Of a DNA stretch of 40,095 nt, positions 1 through 40,095 are shown piece after piece; within the stretch, counting starts at the first letter, position 1; the number at the start of each line of letters is the position of its first letter. The position numbers were made by a program, and so were the translations under genes. Source of the DNA: a virus. Lineage: Duplodnaviria > Heunggongvirae > Uroviricota > Caudoviricetes. The notes beneath the pieces were generated by a model. That model did not search any database and was not told the DNA's origin. It saw only the letters and a list, made by a program, of their open reading frames with translations. The DNA lies in IMG/VR virus record IMGVR_UViG_2740892121_000006, positions 1 to 40,095 of that record. The stretch is one strand, 5' to 3'.

Positions 1-516
1 ATGAAATTTAAAAAATGTCTTCTGCCTGTGGCAATGTTAGCGTCATTCACTCTGGCAGGATGCCAGTCAAATGCTGATGATCATGCCGCCGATGTTTATC
101 AAACCGATCAACTGAATACCAAACAAGAAACTAAAACCGTTAATATTATTTCCATTCTTCCCGCAAAAGTTGCCGTAGACAACGCCCAAAATAAACGGAA
201 CGCACAAGCCTTCGGCGCGCTTATTGGCGCTGTCGCTGGCGGTGTTATCGGCCACAACGTCGGGTCTGGCAGCAATTCCGGAACGACGGCAGGTGCAGTT
301 GGCGGCGGAGCTGTAGGCGCGGCAGCGGGTTCTATGGTGAATGATAAAACCTTAGTGGAAGGTGTTTCTTTAACATATAAGGAAGGCACCAAAGTGTATA
401 CCTCCACCCAAGTGGGTAAAGAGTGCCAGTTTACGACAGGTTTAGCCGTTGTTATTACCACGACGTATAACGAAACGCGTATTCAGCCAAATACCAAATG
501 TCCTGAAAAGAGCTAA
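1..516 (+). CDS. SlyB/PCP-family glycine-zipper outer membrane lipoprotein
   Basis: Signal peptide with lipobox LAGC; Gly/Ala-rich zipper GALIGAVAGGVIG...GAVGGGAVGAAAG; ATG at 1, TAA at 514-516. Confidence 0.6.
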   Translation: MKFKKCLLPVAMLASFTLAGCQSNADDHAADVYQTDQLNTKQETKTVNIISILPAKVAVDNAQNKRNAQAFGALIGAVAGGVIGHNVGSGSNSGTTAGAVGGGAVGAAAGSMVNDKTLVEGVSLTYKEGTKVYTSTQVGKECQFTTGLAVVITTTYNETRIQPNTKCPEKS

Positions 517-531
517 TAATCAGGAGGAGTC

Positions 532-1071
532 ATGAAGAAAGTTTTTCTTTGCGCCATCTTAGCCTCCTTAAGCTATCCGGCTATCGCCTCATCATTGCAG
601 GATCAACTCTCGGCTGTCGCAGAAGCGGAACAGCAAGGTAAAAATGAAGAGCAAAGGCAGCATGACGAATGGGTCGCGGAGCGCAACAGGGAAATCCAGC
701 AAGAGAAGCAACGTCGCGCAAACGCCCAGGCCGCGGCTAATAAAAGAGCGGCAACGGCAGCAGCGAATAAGAAAGCTCGTCAGGATAAACTGGACGCCGA
801 AGCCACTGCGGACAAAAAACGCGATCAAAGTTATGAAGATGAGCTACGTAGCTTAGAGATTCAGAAACAAAAACTGGCGCTGGCGAAAGAAGAAGCCCGC
901 GTTAAGCGCGAAAACGAATTTATCGATCAGGAACTGAAGCACAAAGCTGCGCAAACCGATGTGGTGCAATCTGAAGCTGACGCAAACAGAAATATGACTG
1001 AAGGCGGTCGCGATCTGATGAAAAGCGTGGGTAAAGCAGAAGAGAATAAATCAGATAGCTGGTTTAACTAA
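532..1071 (+). CDS. Secreted, highly charged coiled-coil protein of unknown function
   Basis: N-terminal signal peptide (AIASS), Lys/Glu/Ala-rich repeats; SD AGGAGG 8 nt upstream of ATG. Confidence 0.5.
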   Translation: MKKVFLCAILASLSYPAIASSLQDQLSAVAEAEQQGKNEEQRQHDEWVAERNREIQQEKQRRANAQAAANKRAATAAANKKARQDKLDAEATADKKRDQSYEDELRSLEIQKQKLALAKEEARVKRENEFIDQELKHKAAQTDVVQSEADANRNMTEGGRDLMKSVGKAEENKSDSWFN

Positions 1072-3150: not shown

Positions 3151-5613
3151 TCAATTCCCTGTTAATTGCAAAACTTGCTCTTCCAGCTTTTTAACCCTGC
3201 GTCTCATCATCGCAGATTCCAGAATCAGAGCCTCTTCATAACGGATACCGTAACATTCACCAGCCTCGACGGCTTCGCGTACCAGAACCTTTGTCTGTAT
3301 AAGTGGGTAAACTCCTGCAGAATGCTCTTCTTCCGTCACATCCCTGTATTCTGCCGGGGTCTCATTCCACTTGTCATAACAGATAAATGCCAGTCGTGAC
3401 ACATCTATGCCTTCATTCTGAAATACACTGATAACATGCTGCGCAACTGCACCAAAGTGCCATCTTGCTCCGTCTTTACCTTTCACTTCGATCCTGTCAA
3501 GGTACTGGTATGAAACCCATTCCACTCTTTCCCATGCGTCCAGTATTTTCTCATCAATAACCTCTGGAGCAGTCTTGAAACGCGCATCGGACAGCACCGT
3601 AAACGCTGACTGGGTAAATCCCCCCGACCATGCACGACCAGCCAACCCAAGAGAATAAGTATTCGTTTTCGATGGTGTCATGGCTGAATCAGAAAACTGT
3701 ATATATTCTGAATTTCCAGTAGATATTCGAATATTTCCATTTATTAGCGACATAGTGCCTTTAGTATTATCACTATTGAATAATTTCAATTGCGAACTTA
3801 TACCGCCTCCCACAGCCAGAGATACATCGCCTTCAGCAAGCATTCTGAATTTATCTGCAGAAACAAGCGTCTGGTTAGCAAGGTTAAAATATTTAACCCA
3901 CCATTCAAAACGCCCTGACATAGTCCCAACGTACTGACCAAGCGCAGGGACGTGAACAACATTGCTATTTGTAGTGCCGTCTATACTGGAAATACCAGTC
4001 ACCGCTGATGCAGAACTCAGAATATTATTTCTGTCACCCGGATGTTTAATTTCAACAAAGTTCCTGATACACCCTTCCTCGAAGGTAACCACGCCGGAAG
4101 AACTATACATGGGGAATATTGACGCATAATTACTGCGTGCAGCATCTAAGAAACGAATGGTTGTAGATGTCTGCAGATCTCCTGATTCATTTTTCCCATC
4201 ACACCCAGTCATTAGAATATTACTGGCAATATTATTATTTCCCTGAACGGTGACGCCGTGCGCCTGCTTTGCGTCCGATTCAGAGTAATCAACCAGCACA
4301 TTCGAAATCAGGTTACCAGTCCCCTTGCCAACAACTACTGCGGCGTATTTTGGGTTGTTAGCCATTACACTGCTAATGATATTATTCGTTGGTGCAGTTT
4401 CCGTCTCAGTTCCATTGTAAACAACGTGCTGACACTCTTCACCAATAACATTGCTGACAATGTTATATTTTGCTGCTGTTTTAAGTTCCACTGCACCAAA
4501 CTGAGGATAATTTCTGGCTATCACACCATCAATTAGCGTATTTTGCGATGAATCAAAAAGCACACAACCTGCTTTTTTATTATTTGCGAACCCTAAATAC
4601 TCTCCTCTTATATCTCTAACAATGTAACCTGACGGAATACCATTATTCGGATAAGCGATCAAGCTAAATCCTGTTCCTCGCGTATTTGTAAATCTGATAT
4701 TTTTAACCGATACATCATGGCCACCTGAAAATGACACCTGGTGTCCCTGCACACTATCATCTGATTTATTTCCCATAATTGTTAGCGTACTAAGCATGCC
4801 ACCATCGGGCATGTTAAAAACCAGATGATTACCATCTCTGTCATACTGTTTTATCGTTCCCCCACCTGTTCCGTACAAGCCACAACGTGAAAGAGAAACT
4901 AAAGATGTATTGAATACCCCTTCCGGAACAAAAACACTGCTAAACGAATGTAATGATTTTGTAAAAGCATCCTTGTTATCATTTAAGATTCCATTTTGAG
5001 CTCCAAAATCCTTAATGCTGACACCATCACGCATCTTATCCTGGAACGTTCTGTATACCGCTCCAGAACCATACTGAATAAACCAACCAAAACCACCAAT
5101 AACTCCGGCGATTGCAGCATCGACATAATTACGCATTGAGCGATTATTTACAGCGTCCTGCTCAAGTGATGGATCGGCAAGGTTAGATATTCTGTTTTGC
5201 TTTGCATCGTAATATTTTGCAAGCAAAGATGGTTTCATCAATGCACGTCTGAACCACCCAAAACATCGCTGGATCAGCATCGTCAGGTAGTCAAATGCAT
5301 CCTCATGAACTTCGGGGAAAAATTTTCCCTGATTGCGAAGATCAGTCTCCTGCACCACATCAAGCACACGCTCTATCGTGATTCGCCAGCCAGCAGCAAG
5401 CGGCGACGGAAGAACCACTGCACCGCCACTATAAGTTCCCGCCCCTGTTACCGTATAACCAGCATCCAGCACTAGTTTTGTAACGTTACCGTTAAGGTCA
5501 GACACCTGAACAACCAGGTCGGATTTTTTGAAAATACGGAAGGTATACGGAAATGATGTCGTAACGCCGTTACCTGTGTATTCGTTGTGGTCAACTTCGG
5601 TTGAGACCGTCAT
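3151..5613 (-). CDS. Tailspike / tail fibre with T7-fibre-like N-terminal anchor and C-terminal S74 intramolecular chaperone
   Basis: N-terminus YTGNGVTTSFPYTFRIF resembles phage tail-fibre N-domain; long Gly/Asn/Ser-rich central region (beta-helix-like); C-terminus SDARFK...GARWHFGAVAQHV matches endosialidase-chaperone (peptidase S74) pattern; SD GGAG. Confidence 0.8.
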   Translation of the reverse strand: MTVSTEVDHNEYTGNGVTTSFPYTFRIFKKSDLVVQVSDLNGNVTKLVLDAGYTVTGAGTYSGGAVVLPSPLAAGWRITIERVLDVVQETDLRNQGKFFPEVHEDAFDYLTMLIQRCFGWFRRALMKPSLLAKYYDAKQNRISNLADPSLEQDAVNNRSMRNYVDAAIAGVIGGFGWFIQYGSGAVYRTFQDKMRDGVSIKDFGAQNGILNDNKDAFTKSLHSFSSVFVPEGVFNTSLVSLSRCGLYGTGGGTIKQYDRDGNHLVFNMPDGGMLSTLTIMGNKSDDSVQGHQVSFSGGHDVSVKNIRFTNTRGTGFSLIAYPNNGIPSGYIVRDIRGEYLGFANNKKAGCVLFDSSQNTLIDGVIARNYPQFGAVELKTAAKYNIVSNVIGEECQHVVYNGTETETAPTNNIISSVMANNPKYAAVVVGKGTGNLISNVLVDYSESDAKQAHGVTVQGNNNIASNILMTGCDGKNESGDLQTSTTIRFLDAARSNYASIFPMYSSSGVVTFEEGCIRNFVEIKHPGDRNNILSSASAVTGISSIDGTTNSNVVHVPALGQYVGTMSGRFEWWVKYFNLANQTLVSADKFRMLAEGDVSLAVGGGISSQLKLFNSDNTKGTMSLINGNIRISTGNSEYIQFSDSAMTPSKTNTYSLGLAGRAWSGGFTQSAFTVLSDARFKTAPEVIDEKILDAWERVEWVSYQYLDRIEVKGKDGARWHFGAVAQHVISVFQNEGIDVSRLAFICYDKWNETPAEYRDVTEEEHSAGVYPLIQTKVLVREAVEAGECYGIRYEEALILESAMMRRRVKKLEEQVLQLTGN

Positions 5614-5716
5614 GTTAAATCTCCAGATAGTCGCAGCACCCGTTGCGCCGCATATCTGGTTATTCTATTACCCAAAAAACCATATATGGATAGAAAGACT
5701 GTGAATATGAATAGAT

Positions 5717-5733
5717 ATTACCTTTCAGGTAAT
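5717..5733. promoter_or_regulatory. 17-bp palindrome ATTACC-N5-GGTAAT (candidate repressor operator)
   Basis: ATTACCTTTCAGGTAAT, perfect 6-bp inverted arms; about 75 bp upstream of small ant-like gene. Confidence 0.5.
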
Positions 5734-5769
5734 TTGCAAAACGTGCTGGATAGCAAACAAATTATTTGC

Positions 5770-5789
5770 TACTGTATAAATATACAGTT
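5770..5789. promoter_or_regulatory. LexA box (SOS operator)
   Basis: TACTGTATAAATATACAGTT = CTGT-N8-ACAG with AT-rich core, 18/20 match to TACTGTATATATATACAGTA; ends 6 nt before the first ATG. Confidence 0.7.
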
Positions 5790-5809
5790 ATTGCATGGAG
5801 AAGATTAAG

Positions 5810-6067
5810 ATGCAGCAGTATCACTATCCACTGGAAGAGGGATTTACCGAAAGGATTCACACGCCGGGAGGCGTCAGGTCACTGGTGGAGGGATCGCACT
5901 TGATGAAATTACTCCGGGATCTCGATAAGGATGGATTTAATGTCGATGGCCCACTTGCCGAACTGACTGCACTGATTAACTACGTCACCAGCTCACAGAT
6001 GTCTATGCAGGATCTGCAAACACATCTCGACTATTGTGCCGAACAATTACGAAAGCAAACCACATAA
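5810..6067 (+). CDS. Small antirepressor-like protein (stand-alone copy of Ant C-terminal domain), LexA-controlled
   Basis: About 40 percent identity by eye to the C-terminal 65 aa of the Ant protein at 7534-8226; start at second ATG (SD GGAG 9 nt upstream); track start 5795 also possible. Confidence 0.55.
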   Translation: MQQYHYPLEEGFTERIHTPGGVRSLVEGSHLMKLLRDLDKDGFNVDGPLAELTALINYVTSSQMSMQDLQTHLDYCAEQLRKQTT

Positions 6068-6090
6068 AGAAAAGGCCGCAAGAGCGGCCA
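6068..6090. terminator. Hairpin terminator between convergent genes
   Basis: Stem GGCCGC / GCGGCC (6074-6089) with loop AAGA; A-run on plus side gives T-run for minus-strand transcript ending gene B. Confidence 0.5.
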
Positions 6091-6597
6091 TTAACAGTCG
6101 AAAAATTCTGGGTCCCACAAACTTGCATCGCGCGGCATGGATTCTAACTTTTTCAGCCGCAAAATTCTGTCACACTCGACAACTAATTTTTGCTTCTGCT
6201 CGTCAATTTCTACTGTCTTATGTGCTGGTTCATCCCAATAATCCAGAAGGAAGGCATGGCGTTCAGATGTGACCAGATAAATCACATACACGTCACTGGT
6301 TGGGATCTTTTTATGCTTGTTAGTGGTCTTGTCTTTCTTCCCAGACGCCCAGTTTTTCCAGCATTGTTCCGTACCGCTCTCACCAAACTTGTCAGTATAG
6401 TTTCCGATGTTTACATGAACGTGGCGTATGTGATATTCCAGCATCTCTTTCGGTGGATCCCGAAACAGAGTGTCCTTTCCGAAATCCTTATGATGACCGT
6501 AGCGCCAGTGATCTATGAACGCGTTTTTGATAGGTATTAGCTCAGGGTCCTTCCCAAAAATTCCAGGGTGAACCAACCCCTGGAATTTATTCGGCAT
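6091..6597 (-). CDS. Hypothetical protein (gene B of two-gene moron operon)
   Basis: 168 aa from ATG 6597 (SD AGGAG), start overlaps last codons of gene A by 11 nt; His-rich segments GHHKDFGKD, HIRHVHV; no family recognised; track ORF extends to 6660. Confidence 0.5.
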   Translation of the reverse strand: MPNKFQGLVHPGIFGKDPELIPIKNAFIDHWRYGHHKDFGKDTLFRDPPKEMLEYHIRHVHVNIGNYTDKFGESGTEQCWKNWASGKKDKTTNKHKKIPTSDVYVIYLVTSERHAFLLDYWDEPAHKTVEIDEQKQKLVVECDRILRLKKLESMPRDASLWDPEFFDC

Positions 6598-7114
6598 CGT
6601 CGTAGAGCTCCTGAGCCATATCTTCAGCAGTGCGTGCAAACATCCTGCGCGAGATTGCATGGGATTTCTCTACGGACATCTTTGGGACCTCATGCATAAC
6701 AAGTTGATGAGTTTTCTCATCAACTTGAAGTGGCTTGTATAAACGTTGCCACCTTTCGTTAATTTTATCCTTAAAGCCAGCGAAACCACTTTCCTGACTC
6801 TTGTATCCAAAATGAGATAAAGCCAAATTCCTTTCCATTTCATTCCTAATGTACTCAGCAAGGTTGCAGTGGAATACTTCCCCTTGTTTTTTTAGGCATG
6901 CTTCATGGTCTGTAACACTGTGACGGCTCTCATATAAGTAAATGCGATAGGAATTTTTATTATCCTCTTCTTCATAATTTCTAATCGCATCAGCAGTTGC
7001 CATAGCTGCAGCGTAAGCGGCTGCTTCAATCACCATCTCTTGCTCTTTTTCTTTTTCAGGCCTTTTCAAGGCAAAGCGTCTATGCCTCATCGCTGTAACT
7101 CTCTTCGTGTTCAT
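6587..7114 (-). CDS. Hypothetical protein (gene A of two-gene moron operon)
   Basis: 175 aa from ATG 7114 (G-rich SD); basic N-terminus, largely helical, acidic C-terminus; no family recognised; track start TTG 7126. Confidence 0.5.
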   Translation of the reverse strand: MNTKRVTAMRHRRFALKRPEKEKEQEMVIEAAAYAAAMATADAIRNYEEEDNKNSYRIYLYESRHSVTDHEACLKKQGEVFHCNLAEYIRNEMERNLALSHFGYKSQESGFAGFKDKINERWQRLYKPLQVDEKTHQLVMHEVPKMSVEKSHAISRRMFARTAEDMAQELYDDAE

Positions 7115-7125
7115 GGGCACCCCCA

Positions 7126-7142
7126 ACTACCTTTAGGGTAAA
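7126..7142. promoter_or_regulatory. Degenerate copy of the 17-bp palindrome
   Basis: ACTACCTTTAGGGTAAA, one mismatch per arm; overlaps the translation-initiation region of gene A. Confidence 0.35.
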
Positions 7143-7250: not shown

Positions 7251-7267
7251 ATTACCTTTACGGTAAA
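7251..7267. promoter_or_regulatory. 17-bp palindrome (candidate operator) upstream of ant
   Basis: ATTACCTTTACGGTAAA; preceded by TTGAAA-N17-TTATTA promoter-like hexamers on plus strand. Confidence 0.45.
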
Positions 7268-7359
7268 TTTACATTGCACTCCTCTTGTGCCATAGTAATC
7301 AGGCACTGGCAAAATCCAGTGCCGGGATTGGTCTCCCGGATTACTACAGAGGCACATAT

Positions 7360-7379
7360 GCCGCATAAGCGGTTTTTTT
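7360..7379 (+). terminator. Intrinsic terminator-like hairpin plus U-run inside the ant leader
   Basis: GCCGC-ATAA-GCGG followed by TTTTTTT; two further hairpins just upstream (7302-7323, 7322-7339). Confidence 0.4.
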
Positions 7380-7533
7380 ATGTGTAAAGCGCACCTATTC
7401 TATGGTGGGCTGTGTGGGGGCACCGAAAGGTGCGCCGGGTTCCTTTGTAGCCGGTAAGACCAACTCTGCACAGTTCACCACCATCTGATTGGTCTCAGCG
7501 GTGGTGATTAACCTAACTACAAAGGTGATCGCC

Positions 7534-8226
7534 ATGAATACCAAACCTTCCATCTTTTCCTTTGAGTCATCCTGCCAGATCCGTATGTTCATGATTGACG
7601 GAGAACCTTGGTTTGTCACCAAAGATGTGTGCAATGCTTTGAATATTGATGTTACACAAGCGAGAAAACTTGATAAAAAAGGCTGGAACAAAAAGGGGCT
7701 GTATTCAATACAGACCCCTGGTGGAATACAAGAACTATCCATCGTTTCAGAATCAGGTCTCTACATCCTTATTCTGCGTTGCAAAGAGGCAATGACAGAG
7801 GGAACGAGAGCATTCAGATTTCTTGAATGGGTTACAGGTGAGGTTCTTCCTCAGATCCGCCGCACCGGAAGTTACATTAAAAACTCGCTCCCGCAGGAAG
7901 AACGCATAAAGATGGTTGCCGACCAGGTAGCCAACGCCACAGCATCAGCAGTGATGCAGGCAATGAAGATAGAGAACAAAACCTACAGTGCCCCACTGAA
8001 GCCCGGCTACCGCAGCCTGATTCACTCGCCGTCTGGTGTTCTCGGCCTGACGGAGAACTCACTGCTGATGAATCTGCTGAACCAGTTACAGGACGACGGG
8101 CACGACGTATCGGGCGCGGCGGCGGAGCTGACCACCATGTTCTGCTACATCGTTGGTGTGAGCAAATGCCTGCGTGATATCCAGACGCACGCGGAGTACA
8201 TCAACGACAAAGCAGGGTTCTTCTGA
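7534..8226 (+). CDS. Antirepressor (Bro-N/AntA-type N-terminal domain plus C-terminal domain)
   Basis: N-terminus IRMFMIDGEPWFVTKDVCNALNI...GLYILILR typical of Bro-N/Ant domain; ATG 7534 with SD AAAGGTGA; track ORF begins at TTG 7489. Confidence 0.7.
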   Translation: MNTKPSIFSFESSCQIRMFMIDGEPWFVTKDVCNALNIDVTQARKLDKKGWNKKGLYSIQTPGGIQELSIVSESGLYILILRCKEAMTEGTRAFRFLEWVTGEVLPQIRRTGSYIKNSLPQEERIKMVADQVANATASAVMQAMKIENKTYSAPLKPGYRSLIHSPSGVLGLTENSLLMNLLNQLQDDGHDVSGAAAELTTMFCYIVGVSKCLRDIQTHAEYINDKAGFF

Positions 8227-25784: not shown

Positions 25785-25801
25785 ATTACCTTTCAGGTAA
25801 C
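25785..25801. promoter_or_regulatory. 17-bp palindrome (candidate operator) with TTGACA hexamer upstream
   Basis: ATTACCTTTCAGGTAAC, identical in 16/17 positions including spacer to the site at 5717; TTGACA at 25764-25769; half-site ATTACC at 25723. Confidence 0.45.
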
Positions 25802-26122: not shown

Positions 26123-26199
26123 GTGGCATTAGCTCAGTTGGACAGAGCAACCGCCTTCTAAGCGGTTGGTCGCAGGTTCGAATCCTGCATGCCACGCCA
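26123..26199 (+). tRNA. tRNA-Arg (anticodon UCU, reads AGA)
   Basis: Cloverleaf read by eye: acceptor GTGGCAT/ATGCCAC, D-arm AGCTCAGTTGGACAGAGC, anticodon loop CUUCUAA, T-arm GCAGGTTCGAATCCTGC, discriminator G, encoded CCA. Confidence 0.85.
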
Positions 26200-34197: not shown

Positions 34198-34243
34198 AGC
34201 TATTGCCTGATATTTATTTCAGATAATAAATATTCACCCATAA

Positions 34244-34297
34244 GGTAACAAAAATCAAGGATAGTTACCCATGAGGTGCATTTACCTGTTGGGTAAT
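34244..34297. promoter_or_regulatory. Operator cluster in the cI-cro intergenic region
   Basis: TTTACCTGTTGGGTAAT (34281-34297) plus inverted half-sites GGTAAC-N14-GTTACC (34244-34269) overlapping a minus-strand TTGATT-N17-GAATAT promoter-like element. Confidence 0.5.
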
Positions 34298-34351: not shown

Positions 34352-34936
34352 ATGAAAAGTATCCAGGACGTCCGCAGGCAAAATCTCAACGACTTGATCG
34401 ACCGTGAATTCAATGGTGTTCAGACGCGGATGGCAGAAAAACTTGGAACTCAGGCAAATCTGGTAAACCGCTGGGCTCTTGGCAAGAAGGTTATCGGCGA
34501 CCAGGTTGCGCGAAAAATTGAAGCTGCCGCCAATAAACCACGTAACTGGCTTGATATCGATCGCTCGCTTTCTCAGGAAGGTTTTCAGCCTGTCGGCCCA
34601 AGCGACATTGGTCAGCTGGCGGCTCACAACCTGGAACGCTGGATGAGCGAAAGCCGCGACCTTTCAACTCAGGGAAAACTTCACCGCGCATCCGGCGTCG
34701 CCCAGGTGACAATCAGCCGCCTGTTAAACAATGAGGTCAGTGTTTCCATTTCCACCCTGGAGAATGTTGCATCAGCATTCGGGCGTCACGGCTATGAATT
34801 ACTGATTCACCCGCACGACCCTGCGACCATCAACTATGACCGCTCGCGCTACGCATTGTTACCCGAAACCGAGAAAGCAAAGATCGAAAGTTACATTGAA
34901 TTTGTCATCAACCAGAACGAAAAAAACAAACAATAA
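34352..34936 (+). CDS. CI-like repressor with two tandem HTH (XRE-type) domains, no S24 peptidase domain
   Basis: HTH-like segments at residues about 25-65 and 105-150; no Ala-Gly/Ser-Lys protease signature; divergent from cro-like gene. Confidence 0.65.
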   Translation: MKSIQDVRRQNLNDLIDREFNGVQTRMAEKLGTQANLVNRWALGKKVIGDQVARKIEAAANKPRNWLDIDRSLSQEGFQPVGPSDIGQLAAHNLERWMSESRDLSTQGKLHRASGVAQVTISRLLNNEVSVSISTLENVASAFGRHGYELLIHPHDPATINYDRSRYALLPETEKAKIESYIEFVINQNEKNKQ

Positions 34937-34992: not shown

Positions 34993-35009
34993 ATTACCTA
35001 ATGGGTAAT
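34993..35009. promoter_or_regulatory. 17-bp palindrome (candidate operator) upstream of -35
   Basis: ATTACCTAATGGGTAAT, perfect arms. Confidence 0.5.
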
Positions 35010-35027
35010 TTTTTTAACTCATATCTA

Positions 35028-35056
35028 TTGACATCAAACCAAATACGCATAATTAT
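35028..35056 (+). promoter_or_regulatory. PL-like sigma70 promoter
   Basis: TTGACA (35028-35033), 17-bp spacer, AATTAT (35051-35056); flanked by two palindrome sites. Confidence 0.5.
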
Positions 35057-35071
35057 TACCTCAACGGTAAC
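35055..35071. promoter_or_regulatory. 17-bp palindrome (candidate operator) overlapping -10/+1
   Basis: ATTACCTCAACGGTAAC. Confidence 0.5.
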
Positions 35072-38844: not shown

Positions 38845-40095
38845 TTATTCCCCCGCCATCCACTTCTCAAACTTCGACGGGGAGAACGGAATCAGATCCG
38901 TATGCTCCCCGTTAATCCAGGAATCAATCATATCGGCCCACTGCTGCAACATGTAGGCGCGCTGTCTGGCGTATTCCGCTTTGTTATATACGGCGCGCAC
39001 ACCTTTCTGCTCATGTGCCAGAGCCTTTTCAATCCAGTCTGAAGGATAACCAGCCTCATGCAACAACGTACTGGCTGTACGGCGCATATCGTGTACGGTG
39101 AAGCCCTGAATATGCTCACCATCTTCATTTATTATTTTCACCGTTCTGTCGATCAGAGAGTTCAGCGCGGCATTAGATAATGGCTTCCGGAAATTGTAAC
39201 GACCAGGAACCAGATATTCACTTCCACCAGCGCACATCTGCAACCCAACCAATATATCCTGTGCCTGTTTAGGCAGGTAAATAACGTGCGCCCGGCTTCC
39301 CTTCATGCGGTCTGAAGGAATTGTCCATGTCCATTTTTTAAAATCTATTTCATCCCACGTTGCATTGGTGAATTCGCCTTTACGAACCATAGTGATAAGC
39401 ACCAGCTTTAAAGCCATTTTCATAGTGCCCATAGCACCAATGGCATCCAGCGTGCGGAAGAACAGACCAATTTCTTCTGGTGTCAGTGTTCGCTCTCGTG
39501 GTTTAAATATGGCGATAGACGAAGGTTTAATGTCAGCCGCAGGATTAAACAAACCATGACCACGGTCATTGGCATGACGGTATACGCTGCTGATGATCTC
39601 CCTGGCCTGCACTGCTGTTGCCCGGCCGCCGCGTTCGACAATCCGGTCACACAAATCACGAACCATCGATGTGGTAATTTCAGTCATCATTTTGTTGCCA
39701 AGAACCGGAAGTATGTCACGGTCGATCACCACCTGCTTCATTGCGCGGGTACTGTCAGCCAGGATGACATGTTTCATATAACTGTCGGTATGTACCGCAA
39801 ACGTCTCGGCACCACGAATCTTTTTGATACCGTCACGTTTAGCCGCAGCCGGTGACTGGCCTGCTTTAAGCAGCTTCTTTGCAGCAATCAGTTCTTCTCG
39901 CGCTTCTGCCAGGCTGATACCGTCACGCCCATACTGCCCGATTACCAGTGTTTCGCGGCGACCGTTGATACGGTAGTCATAGCGAAACGAGACCGTGCCT
40001 GACGTAAGCACAGCTACATACAGCCCGTCACGATCGGAGACCTTGTACAGTTTGTCCTGCGGCTTGAGGTTTTTTAATTTTGTATCGGTAAGCAC
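38845..40095 (-). CDS. int: Tyrosine integrase (phage integrase family), 5' end at or beyond window edge
   Basis: N-terminal LTDTKLKNLKP...GLYVAV SAM-like domain, C-terminal catalytic region with HDMRRT and tyrosine-bearing tail; ORF reaches last base of window. Confidence 0.85.
   Translation of the reverse strand: MLTDTKLKNLKPQDKLYKVSDRDGLYVAVLTSGTVSFRYDYRINGRRETLVIGQYGRDGISLAEAREELIAAKKLLKAGQSPAAAKRDGIKKIRGAETFAVHTDSYMKHVILADSTRAMKQVVIDRDILPVLGNKMMTEITTSMVRDLCDRIVERGGRATAVQAREIISSVYRHANDRGHGLFNPAADIKPSSIAIFKPRERTLTPEEIGLFFRTLDAIGAMGTMKMALKLVLITMVRKGEFTNATWDEIDFKKWTWTIPSDRMKGSRAHVIYLPKQAQDILVGLQMCAGGSEYLVPGRYNFRKPLSNAALNSLIDRTVKIINEDGEHIQGFTVHDMRRTASTLLHEAGYPSDWIEKALAHEQKGVRAVYNKAEYARQRAYMLQQWADMIDSWINGEHTDLIPFSPSKFEKWMAGE

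Follow-up and report, generated by a model that had tools for sequence, protein, structure and literature searches.

The 40,095-nucleotide stretch analysed here (IMG/VR record IMGVR_UViG_2740892121_000006, hereafter the window) is an epsilon15/phiV10-like (Uetakevirus) prophage of E. coli, inserted beside yfgH-yfgI. Its small gene ant very probably belongs to a switch of the type found in phage SPC32H, in which LexA would repress ant and Ant made during the SOS response would inactivate the repressor, Rep, without cleaving it. A first reading of the locus, made from the sequence without database searches (the sequence-only reading), had proposed LexA-dependent antirepressor induction in place of RecA-mediated repressor cleavage, and this proposal is supported by the orthology of Ant and Rep with their SPC32H counterparts and by the conservation of the LexA box in front of ant. 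The mechanism itself is already known from SPC32H, a phage of the same genus; what the databases do not hold is the annotation of ant as an antirepressor.

The window is recognised as a prophage with host flank because yfgH-yfgI lie at its left end and an integrase gene at its right. Around ant, identity was 93-96% with the phiV10/TL-2011b/EC.W1-9 group of Escherichia phages and about 77-79% with Enterobacter phage Tyrion and the epsilon15-like phages of Salmonella. Wherever the fetched records of these relatives state a genus, it is Uetakevirus. The features discussed below are collected in Table 1.

Table 1. Coordinates of the features discussed, numbered from the first nucleotide of the window.
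Feature	Position	Strand	Details
Host genes yfgH-yfgI	1-1071		Left end of window
Tailspike gene	3151-5613	-	Pfam Peptidase_S74 and Beta_helix; divergent from ant
Conserved block, candidate tailspike (late) promoter	5662-5690	-	Suggested by alignment and recurring layout
Elements of the conserved block			-10 TAGAAT, 5667 to 5662; half-site ATTACC, 5667-5672; motif AACCATATATG, 5678-5688
17-bp palindrome ATTACCTTTCAGGTAAT, repressor-operator-type	5717-5733		36 nt between palindrome and LexA box
Predicted ant promoter	5747-5775	+	-35 TGGATA, 5747-5752; 17-nt spacer ending TGc, 5767-5769; -10 TACTGT, 5770-5775
LexA (SOS) box TACTGTATAAATATACAGTT	5770-5789		Core CTGT-N8-ACAG at 5772-5787; weight-matrix score 27.4 bits
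Shine-Dalgarno GGAG of ant	5797-5800	+	9 nt before ATG 5810; invariant in alignment
ant, antirepressor, SPC32H Ant orthologue	5810-6067	+	85 aa and stop
GC hairpin	6074-6089		Between ant and convergent YafO-like gene; T-run on minus strand only; from terminator scan
Palindrome	7251-7267		Adjoins -35 TTTACA (7268-7273) of isrK-C4-ant2 promoter
isrK-like Hfq-binding sRNA with terminator	7303-7379	+	Rfam RF01394, 74.7 bits (gathering cut-off 50)
C4 antisense RNA	7398-7485	+	Rfam RF01695, 78.6 bits (gathering cut-off 45)
ant2, Bro-N protein with Ant-like C-terminal domain	7534-8226	+	230 aa; RefSeq start and product name
Palindromes	34233-34297		Divergent region between cro-like gene and rep
rep, 194-aa non-cleavable repressor, presumed Ant target	34352-34936	+
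Two palindromes, 62 bp apart	34993-35071		Bracket early promoter TTGACA-17-CATAAT downstream of rep
Integrase gene			Right end of window

The sequence-only reading had given the position of the LexA box, its CTGT-N8-ACAG core and the AT-rich centre of that core correctly, and had suggested scoring the site with a LexA weight matrix. Using a matrix derived from 21 LexA boxes of E. coli, we found that the site outscored all 21 training sites (best 26.4 bits), and that the runner-up in the 40 kb window reached 9.8 bits. In 30 shuffled windows the maximum score averaged 11.9 bits and the highest was 19.9. Three copies of CTGT-N8-ACAG are present in the window, where 0.51 would be expected, and an A/T core is seen only in the copy at 5770-5789. 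The box is near-perfect and the sole strong LexA site of the window, and chance is excluded; the same scan gave no site of at least 8 bits near ant2 or rep.

To follow the box beyond the window, the tailspike-ant intergenic region was aligned among nine phages and then together with five prophages of Citrobacter, Erwinia, Pseudocitrobacter and Scandinavium. The box was kept in all 14 relatives compared, with a degenerate left arm in two Klebsiella phages, whose version (left arm ATGT) scored 18.6 bits. In the twelve non-Klebsiella sequences, SPC32N excepted, the box scored at least 22.6 bits and began 39-42 nt ahead of the ant ATG. Over seven genera (E. coli, Salmonella, Citrobacter, Enterobacter, Erwinia, Pseudocitrobacter and Scandinavium), the distance from the start of the box to the ATG was 38-42 nt. 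Both arms, CTGT and ACAG, were constant among the non-Klebsiella sequences, again apart from SPC32N, while the central 8 nt varied (ATAAATAT, GTATTTAT, ATGTTTAT, ATAAGCAT, ACATATAT and others). Arms that stay fixed around a centre that differs suggest a protein-binding site under selection. Among the IMG/VR loci, 76 of 77 carried a box of at least 26.7 bits, and in the single exception the left arm had been replaced by foreign DNA resembling the end of a transposase gene. The intergenic regions of SPC32H and SPC32N differ by one base, which lies within the LexA box and changes ACAG to AAAG; this mutation was reportedly found by Kim & Ryu in 2013 to make Ant constitutive and the phage lytic.

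A generic sigma-70 scan of positions 5550-6150 reported no promoter, and the ant promoter was therefore read from conservation instead. The elements TGGATA-17-TGnTACTGT were identical in 11 of 12 orthologous regions, with the Klebsiella version shifted by one base. The -10 hexamer TACTGT of this candidate coincides with the left arm of the LexA box and forms part of an extended -10, TGc-TACTGT. Transcription of ant is predicted to start near position 5782, within the box, so that bound LexA would occlude RNA polymerase. The conserved TGnTACTGT element thus points to an overlap of box and promoter like that in the SPC32H switch. Two other candidates for the promoter were set aside. TTGCAA-17-ACAAAT degenerates across the relatives, where its -10 becomes TTCGAA, AGAAAG or GCAAAC, and it is kept as a minor alternative only; a sigma-54 promoter CTGGATAG...TTGC, judged by eye, has the wrong GG-GC spacing.

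The start codon of ant lies 20 nt downstream of the end of the box. The ATG at 5810 was taken as the start because the other in-frame ATG, at 5795, falls out of frame in relatives that are one base shorter upstream. The product of this frame, which the sequence-only reading had described as a small Ant-like protein just 3' of the box, showed 89.5% global identity to SPC32H Ant (~86 aa) and matched PDB entry 5D50 chain E ('Anti-repressor protein') with E=5e-48 over residues 2-85. In the GenBank record of SPC32H the orthologue, SPC32H_020, is named ant and the repressor gene is named rep. Ant belongs to phrog_450, a family labelled 'unknown function', and its structural and family matches were SPC32H Ant and phrog_450 only; no Pfam or NCBIfam model for Ant was found. 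A Pfam scan of Ant at E<=0.01 gave no DinI-like domain and only a sub-threshold match to DUF724. In an alignment of ten Ant sequences, ant2 included, 21 residues were invariant. The gene is not part of the immunity region and points away from the tailspike gene; SPC32H, epsilon15 and phiV10 have the same divergent tailspike/ant order. A search of genome contigs with Ant, which detects close relatives only, returned five loci.

The intergenic region holds a second candidate regulatory site, the palindrome at 5717-5733. TTACC-N5-GGTAA occurs in the window ten times exactly and 15 times with at most one mismatch, against 0.74 expected. These palindromes cluster around rep, where four copies flank the gene, and others precede the terminase, head, tailspike and ant2 genes and further operons. 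In the epsilon15 record the equivalent 17-mers are annotated as protein_bind 'repressor', including one between gp19 (epsilon15 Ant) and the tailspike gene. Both the clustering of copies at rep and the epsilon15 annotation indicate that the palindrome is the operator motif of the phage. In most of the relatives compared its position relative to the ant ATG is -92/-95, in Klebsiella phages it is -90, and phiV10 has a one-base variant. The sequence-only reading had suggested that this palindrome might place ant under dual control. The palindrome is real and of the operator type, and that part of the suggestion stands; control of ant by it is not established, because the site may instead work for the tailspike promoter on the other strand.

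We give an even chance to the reading in which the palindrome works as the upstream operator within a composite promoter that reads leftward into late genes (tailspike and lysis), and is a neighbour of ant only by lying in the same intergenic region. Read along the minus strand, the palindrome is followed by about 28 nt, CATATATGGTTTTTTGGGTAATAGAAT and the tailspike gene. A like layout is seen at three leftward regions that have no ant, most clearly at 25785 (head genes) and 31994 and more loosely at 7251, and in SPC32H it also precedes the genes for head, tailspike and lysis; it is this recurrence before other leftward genes, here and in SPC32H, that suggests a role at the late tailspike promoter. 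The epsilon15 record likewise places repressor and IHF sites before gp3 (head genes) and before the tailspike gene. However, at about -70 the site misses the core of this promoter too, so that any repression from there might act through a loop to the half-site at the -10 or through bending by IHF, and a role in tailspike expression is compatible with an additional effect on ant.

True dual control, in which Rep bound at 5717-5733 would also repress or damp ant, maximal Ant production would require the loss of Rep as well as LexA cleavage, and a positive feedback would sharpen the switch, is in our view doubtful, though several observations speak for it. The palindrome beside ant has the same motif as the cluster around rep and is kept next to ant in every relative compared, with the one-base variant in phiV10. 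It also abuts a -35-like TTGCAA, just as the copy at 7251-7267 abuts the TTTACA of the isrK-C4-ant2 promoter, where the predicted transcription start coincides with the start of the isrK model. Yet the promoter that TTGCAA would belong to has no conserved -10 in the relatives, and the centre of the palindrome, at about -57 from the predicted ant start, lies beyond the core promoter. Nor would it be logical for Rep to repress ant tightly: every lysogen contains Rep, so SOS could never start induction. A single change in the LexA box of SPC32N was also enough for the lytic phenotype, as reportedly described by Kim & Ryu in 2013. The palindrome may nevertheless damp ant or act on it by positive feedback.

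The presumed target of Ant, Rep, matched chain A of 5D50 ('Repressor') from end to end (E=4e-42) and 5D4Z_A (crystallised Rep 92-198) over residues 89-190 (E=4e-20). Its sequence is the same as that of the phiV10 repressor (100% identity), whereas identity to SPC32H Rep is 41%. The sequence-only reading had described a repressor that lacks a protease domain, and Pfam indeed found HTH domains only in Rep, with no Peptidase_S24 even at E<=0.1. In the alignment, read by eye, the C-terminal Ant-binding/tetramerisation segment was recognisably conserved, and the positions aligned with the tetramer-interface residues Phe187/Phe190 were Tyr/Phe. In SPC32H the C-terminal domain of Rep (CAD) serves both tetramerisation and Ant binding (PMC9986798). 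Since Rep is only 41% identical to its SPC32H counterpart, binding of Ant to Rep in this phage is an extrapolation. Ant was present in 35 phage records and Rep in 37, largely the same ones. Lambda-like self-cleavage of the repressor stimulated by RecA, with the LexA box and small ORF as accessories or relics, has in its favour only that it is the default model for temperate phages, and is highly improbable here given that Rep has no Peptidase_S24, that the structure of its homologue consists of HTH, dimerisation and tetramerisation domains only, and that the box and the ORF are under clear purifying selection across genera.

On the SPC32H model, the switch would work as follows. In the lysogen, a Rep tetramer would shut the lytic promoters by binding the 17-bp ATTACC-N5-GGTAAT operators; each Rep would comprise an N-terminal HTH, a middle dimerisation part and a C-terminal Ant-binding/tetramerisation domain. 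As Rep has no protease domain, RecA could not trigger its self-cleavage. Host LexA bound at 5770-5789 would cover the -10 and the transcription start of ant and keep the gene silent. DNA damage would activate RecA, LexA would cleave itself, and ant would be transcribed. Ant would then bind the C-terminal domain of Rep and dismantle the DNA-bound tetramer, so that Rep would leave its operators and lytic growth would follow. We infer LexA binding, Ant-Rep binding and Ant-dependent induction in this phage from the work on SPC32H. In SPC32H, as summarised in passages of PMC9638917 and PMC7380047, Ant binds Rep and releases it from DNA, and induction proceeds via Ant and the cleavage of LexA. PMC7380047, a review that cites Kim & Ryu, describes for Salmonella phages the sequence of LexA self-cleavage, Ant synthesis and inhibition of the repressor by protein-protein interaction.

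The larger antirepressor gene that the sequence-only reading had mentioned exists as well (ant2). Its longest ORF extends upstream to a TTG at 7489. The product contains a Bro-N domain (PF02498, E=2e-13, 51.2 bits against a cut-off of 25.6) and also matches PHROG anti-repressor families; the N-terminal domain of P22 Ant (PF10547) scored 17.6 bits in ant2, under the cut-off of 30.7. Over its last 74 aa the product shares 42% identity with Ant (E=1e-15), phrog_450 matched residues 162-243 (E=5.8e-37), and ant2 has all 21 invariant columns of the ten-sequence alignment, of which it is itself a member. Upstream, the predicted promoter TTTACA-17-CATAGT would start transcription at ~7303, the first position of the isrK model. 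The loop of the C4 RNA, CCUUUGUAG (7442-7450), is complementary over 9 nt to CUACAAAGG (7517-7525), a segment that overlaps the ribosome-binding site of ant2. The isrK-C4-ant2 module was found in phiV10, Tyrion and EC.W1-9 and was absent from the scanned stretches of SPC32H and Klebsiella BUCT711.

These features would allow a two-tier circuit, in which the LexA-controlled Ant acts first and ant2 second, with positive feedback on Ant through the Rep operator and cross-induction by Ant. We regard this combination as speculative and rather unlikely. In such a circuit ant2, lying behind a Rep-type operator, an isrK-like sRNA and C4, may be released only after Rep falls, and it could then either lock the switch or serve as a factor that counters the immunity of resident relatives. 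Identity across genera was 62-99% for Ant and 42-100% for Rep. Since Ant is far more conserved than Rep, it might cross-induce heteroimmune Uetakevirus prophages, as Gifsy antirepressors do.

The closest known system is the Rep-Ant-LexA lytic switch of SPC32H, reportedly worked out by Kim & Ryu (2013, J Virol 87:11775) and Kim et al. (2016, PNAS 113:E2480). The phages share the genus, orthologous Ant (89.5%) and Rep (41%, same domain order), a LexA box equally far from the ant start, the divergent tailspike/ant order and the same operator arms. They differ in host (Salmonella for SPC32H, E. coli here), in the central 8 nt of the box and in Rep, which is here of the phiV10 type and far from SPC32H Rep; in addition, the window has a module of isrK, C4 and the gene for the Bro-N/Ant-domain protein that is not seen in the scanned SPC32H stretch.

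The sequence-only reading had named Gifsy-type prophages as the precedent. The logic is the same, but the exact precedent is SPC32H Ant/Rep, and SPC32H Ant is said by Kim & Ryu to be structurally distinct from the Gifsy antirepressors. The likeness to GfoA/GfhA is functional only and consists in a LexA-controlled antirepressor encoded outside the immunity region, whereas the repressors of the Gifsy phages, which are lambdoid siphoviruses, are unrelated. The antirepressor Tum of coliphage 186 carries a DinI-like C-terminal part. Ant, in contrast, has no Pfam DinI match, and 186 is a P2-like myovirus. For Gifsy-1/Gifsy-3, a passage of PMC3121763 describes a non-cleavable repressor and the antirepressors GfoA/GfhA, encoded outside the immunity region and directly controlled by LexA. 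Tum is presented in a passage of PMC7380047, which cites Shearwin et al. 1998, as a LexA-repressed antirepressor that reversibly inactivates the non-cleavable CI.

Two further systems resemble ant2 alone. In P1/P7 immI, which comprises C4, icd and ant, C4 also lies immediately upstream, with a loop complementary to the ribosome-binding site of the antirepressor, and in Gifsy-1 isrK-anrP an isrK-type sRNA precedes the antirepressor gene; both systems have a repressor-type operator at the promoter. Unlike P1/P7 immI, which encodes P1 Ant, ant2 is predicted to be a fusion of Bro-N to an SPC32H-Ant-like domain.

The locus thus belongs to a prophage family induced, on this evidence, through LexA-controlled antirepression and not through repressor cleavage. 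Its practical value lies in the transfer of annotation from SPC32H, with no new mechanism. Two leads are mildly new: what the Rep operator next to ant may do, and a possible RNA-controlled second protein with an Ant domain. The assignment is relevant to phiV10-type phages used in O157 typing and detection, and to predicting which SOS-inducing antibiotics mobilise such prophages. All 12 RefSeq rows listed call the small ORF 'hypothetical protein', as do most phage records. Of 5,426 complete E. coli genomes, 532 (~10%) contain the 561-bp stretch around ant.

Ant is much more conserved across phage records than its presumed target, the repressor Rep. Between the window and SPC32H, the identity of Ant is 89.5% compared to 41% for Rep; for the Klebsiella phages the values are about 62-65% (Ant) and 45% (Rep). 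This gap is compatible with antirepression that is cross-reactive among heteroimmune relatives.

The 17-bp palindrome ATTACC-N5-GGTAAT occurs at 15 sites in the whole window, compared to 0.74 expected, and these palindromes constitute an operator family spread genome-wide. Two pairs of sites (31932/31994 and 34993/35055) are spaced by exactly 62 bp, which fits a looping tetrameric repressor. A second repeated motif, AACCAYATAWG, is found at a distance of 40-52 bp from four of the palindromes and in every case faces minus-strand genes. It is accompanied by a half-site, GGTAAT, located where TAGAAT/TAATTT resembles a -10 element. Together, these elements have the look of a composite promoter for late or middle genes; its -35 is poor, and this candidate promoter may require an activator.

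Coordinates of the features in the window
Feature	Position	Strand	Remark
Palindrome, exact	5717, 7251, 8310, 25785, 28930, 31932, 31994, 34281, 34993, 35055		
Palindrome, 1 mismatch	5485, 7126, 28912, 33896, 34233		
AACCAYATAWG	5678-5688, ~7210, 25734, 31953		
Larger ant module	7251-8226		immI-like
Rep-type palindrome	within 7251-8226		first element of module; adjoins promoter directly
isrK-like sRNA	7303-7379		second element; 3' of palindrome/promoter
C4 antisense RNA	7398-7485		third element; between isrK-like sRNA and ant2
ant2	7534-8226		last element; Bro-N protein with SPC32H-Ant-like C-terminal domain
Overlapping ORF pair	6091-7126	minus	convergent with ant
tRNA-Arg	26123-26199	+	anticodon TCT
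Window start	1-1071		within host yfgH-yfgI
Window end	38845-40095		within phage integrase gene

The larger ant gene forms, with its upstream elements, an immI-like module. The ribosome-binding site of ant2 (7517-7525) is complementary to the C4 loop (7442-7450). The isrK/C4/ant2 module is also carried by phiV10, Tyrion and EC.W1-9, and was not found in the scanned stretches of SPC32H and BUCT711.

Some relatives depart from the LexA box upstream of ant. In the Klebsiella phages BUCT711 and Kp4865-1 (compared loci L006 and L007), the left arm of the box is ATGT rather than CTGT and the score is 18.6 bits. Because this arm is degenerate, SOS control of ant may be weaker in the Klebsiella branch. 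In locus L064 (IMGVR_UViG_2563366870_000004), foreign sequence at about 1160 takes the place of the left arm and of everything upstream, cutting ant off from its own promoter and palindrome. The foreign sequence resembles the end of a transposase gene, and L064 is the sole locus among the 77 from IMG/VR altered in this way.

The two overlapping ORFs convergent with ant are probably a toxin-antitoxin moron. RefSeq labels the downstream ORF 'type II toxin-antitoxin system YafO family toxin', although searches of Pfam and NCBIfam found no match for it. In E. coli K-12, yafO is a member of the LexA-controlled dinB operon.

The tRNA-Arg gene is located on the strand opposite to that of the surrounding structural genes, and the equivalent position in SPC32H also holds a tRNA-Arg. 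The window starts in host genes and ends in the integrase gene, and therefore covers one prophage junction.
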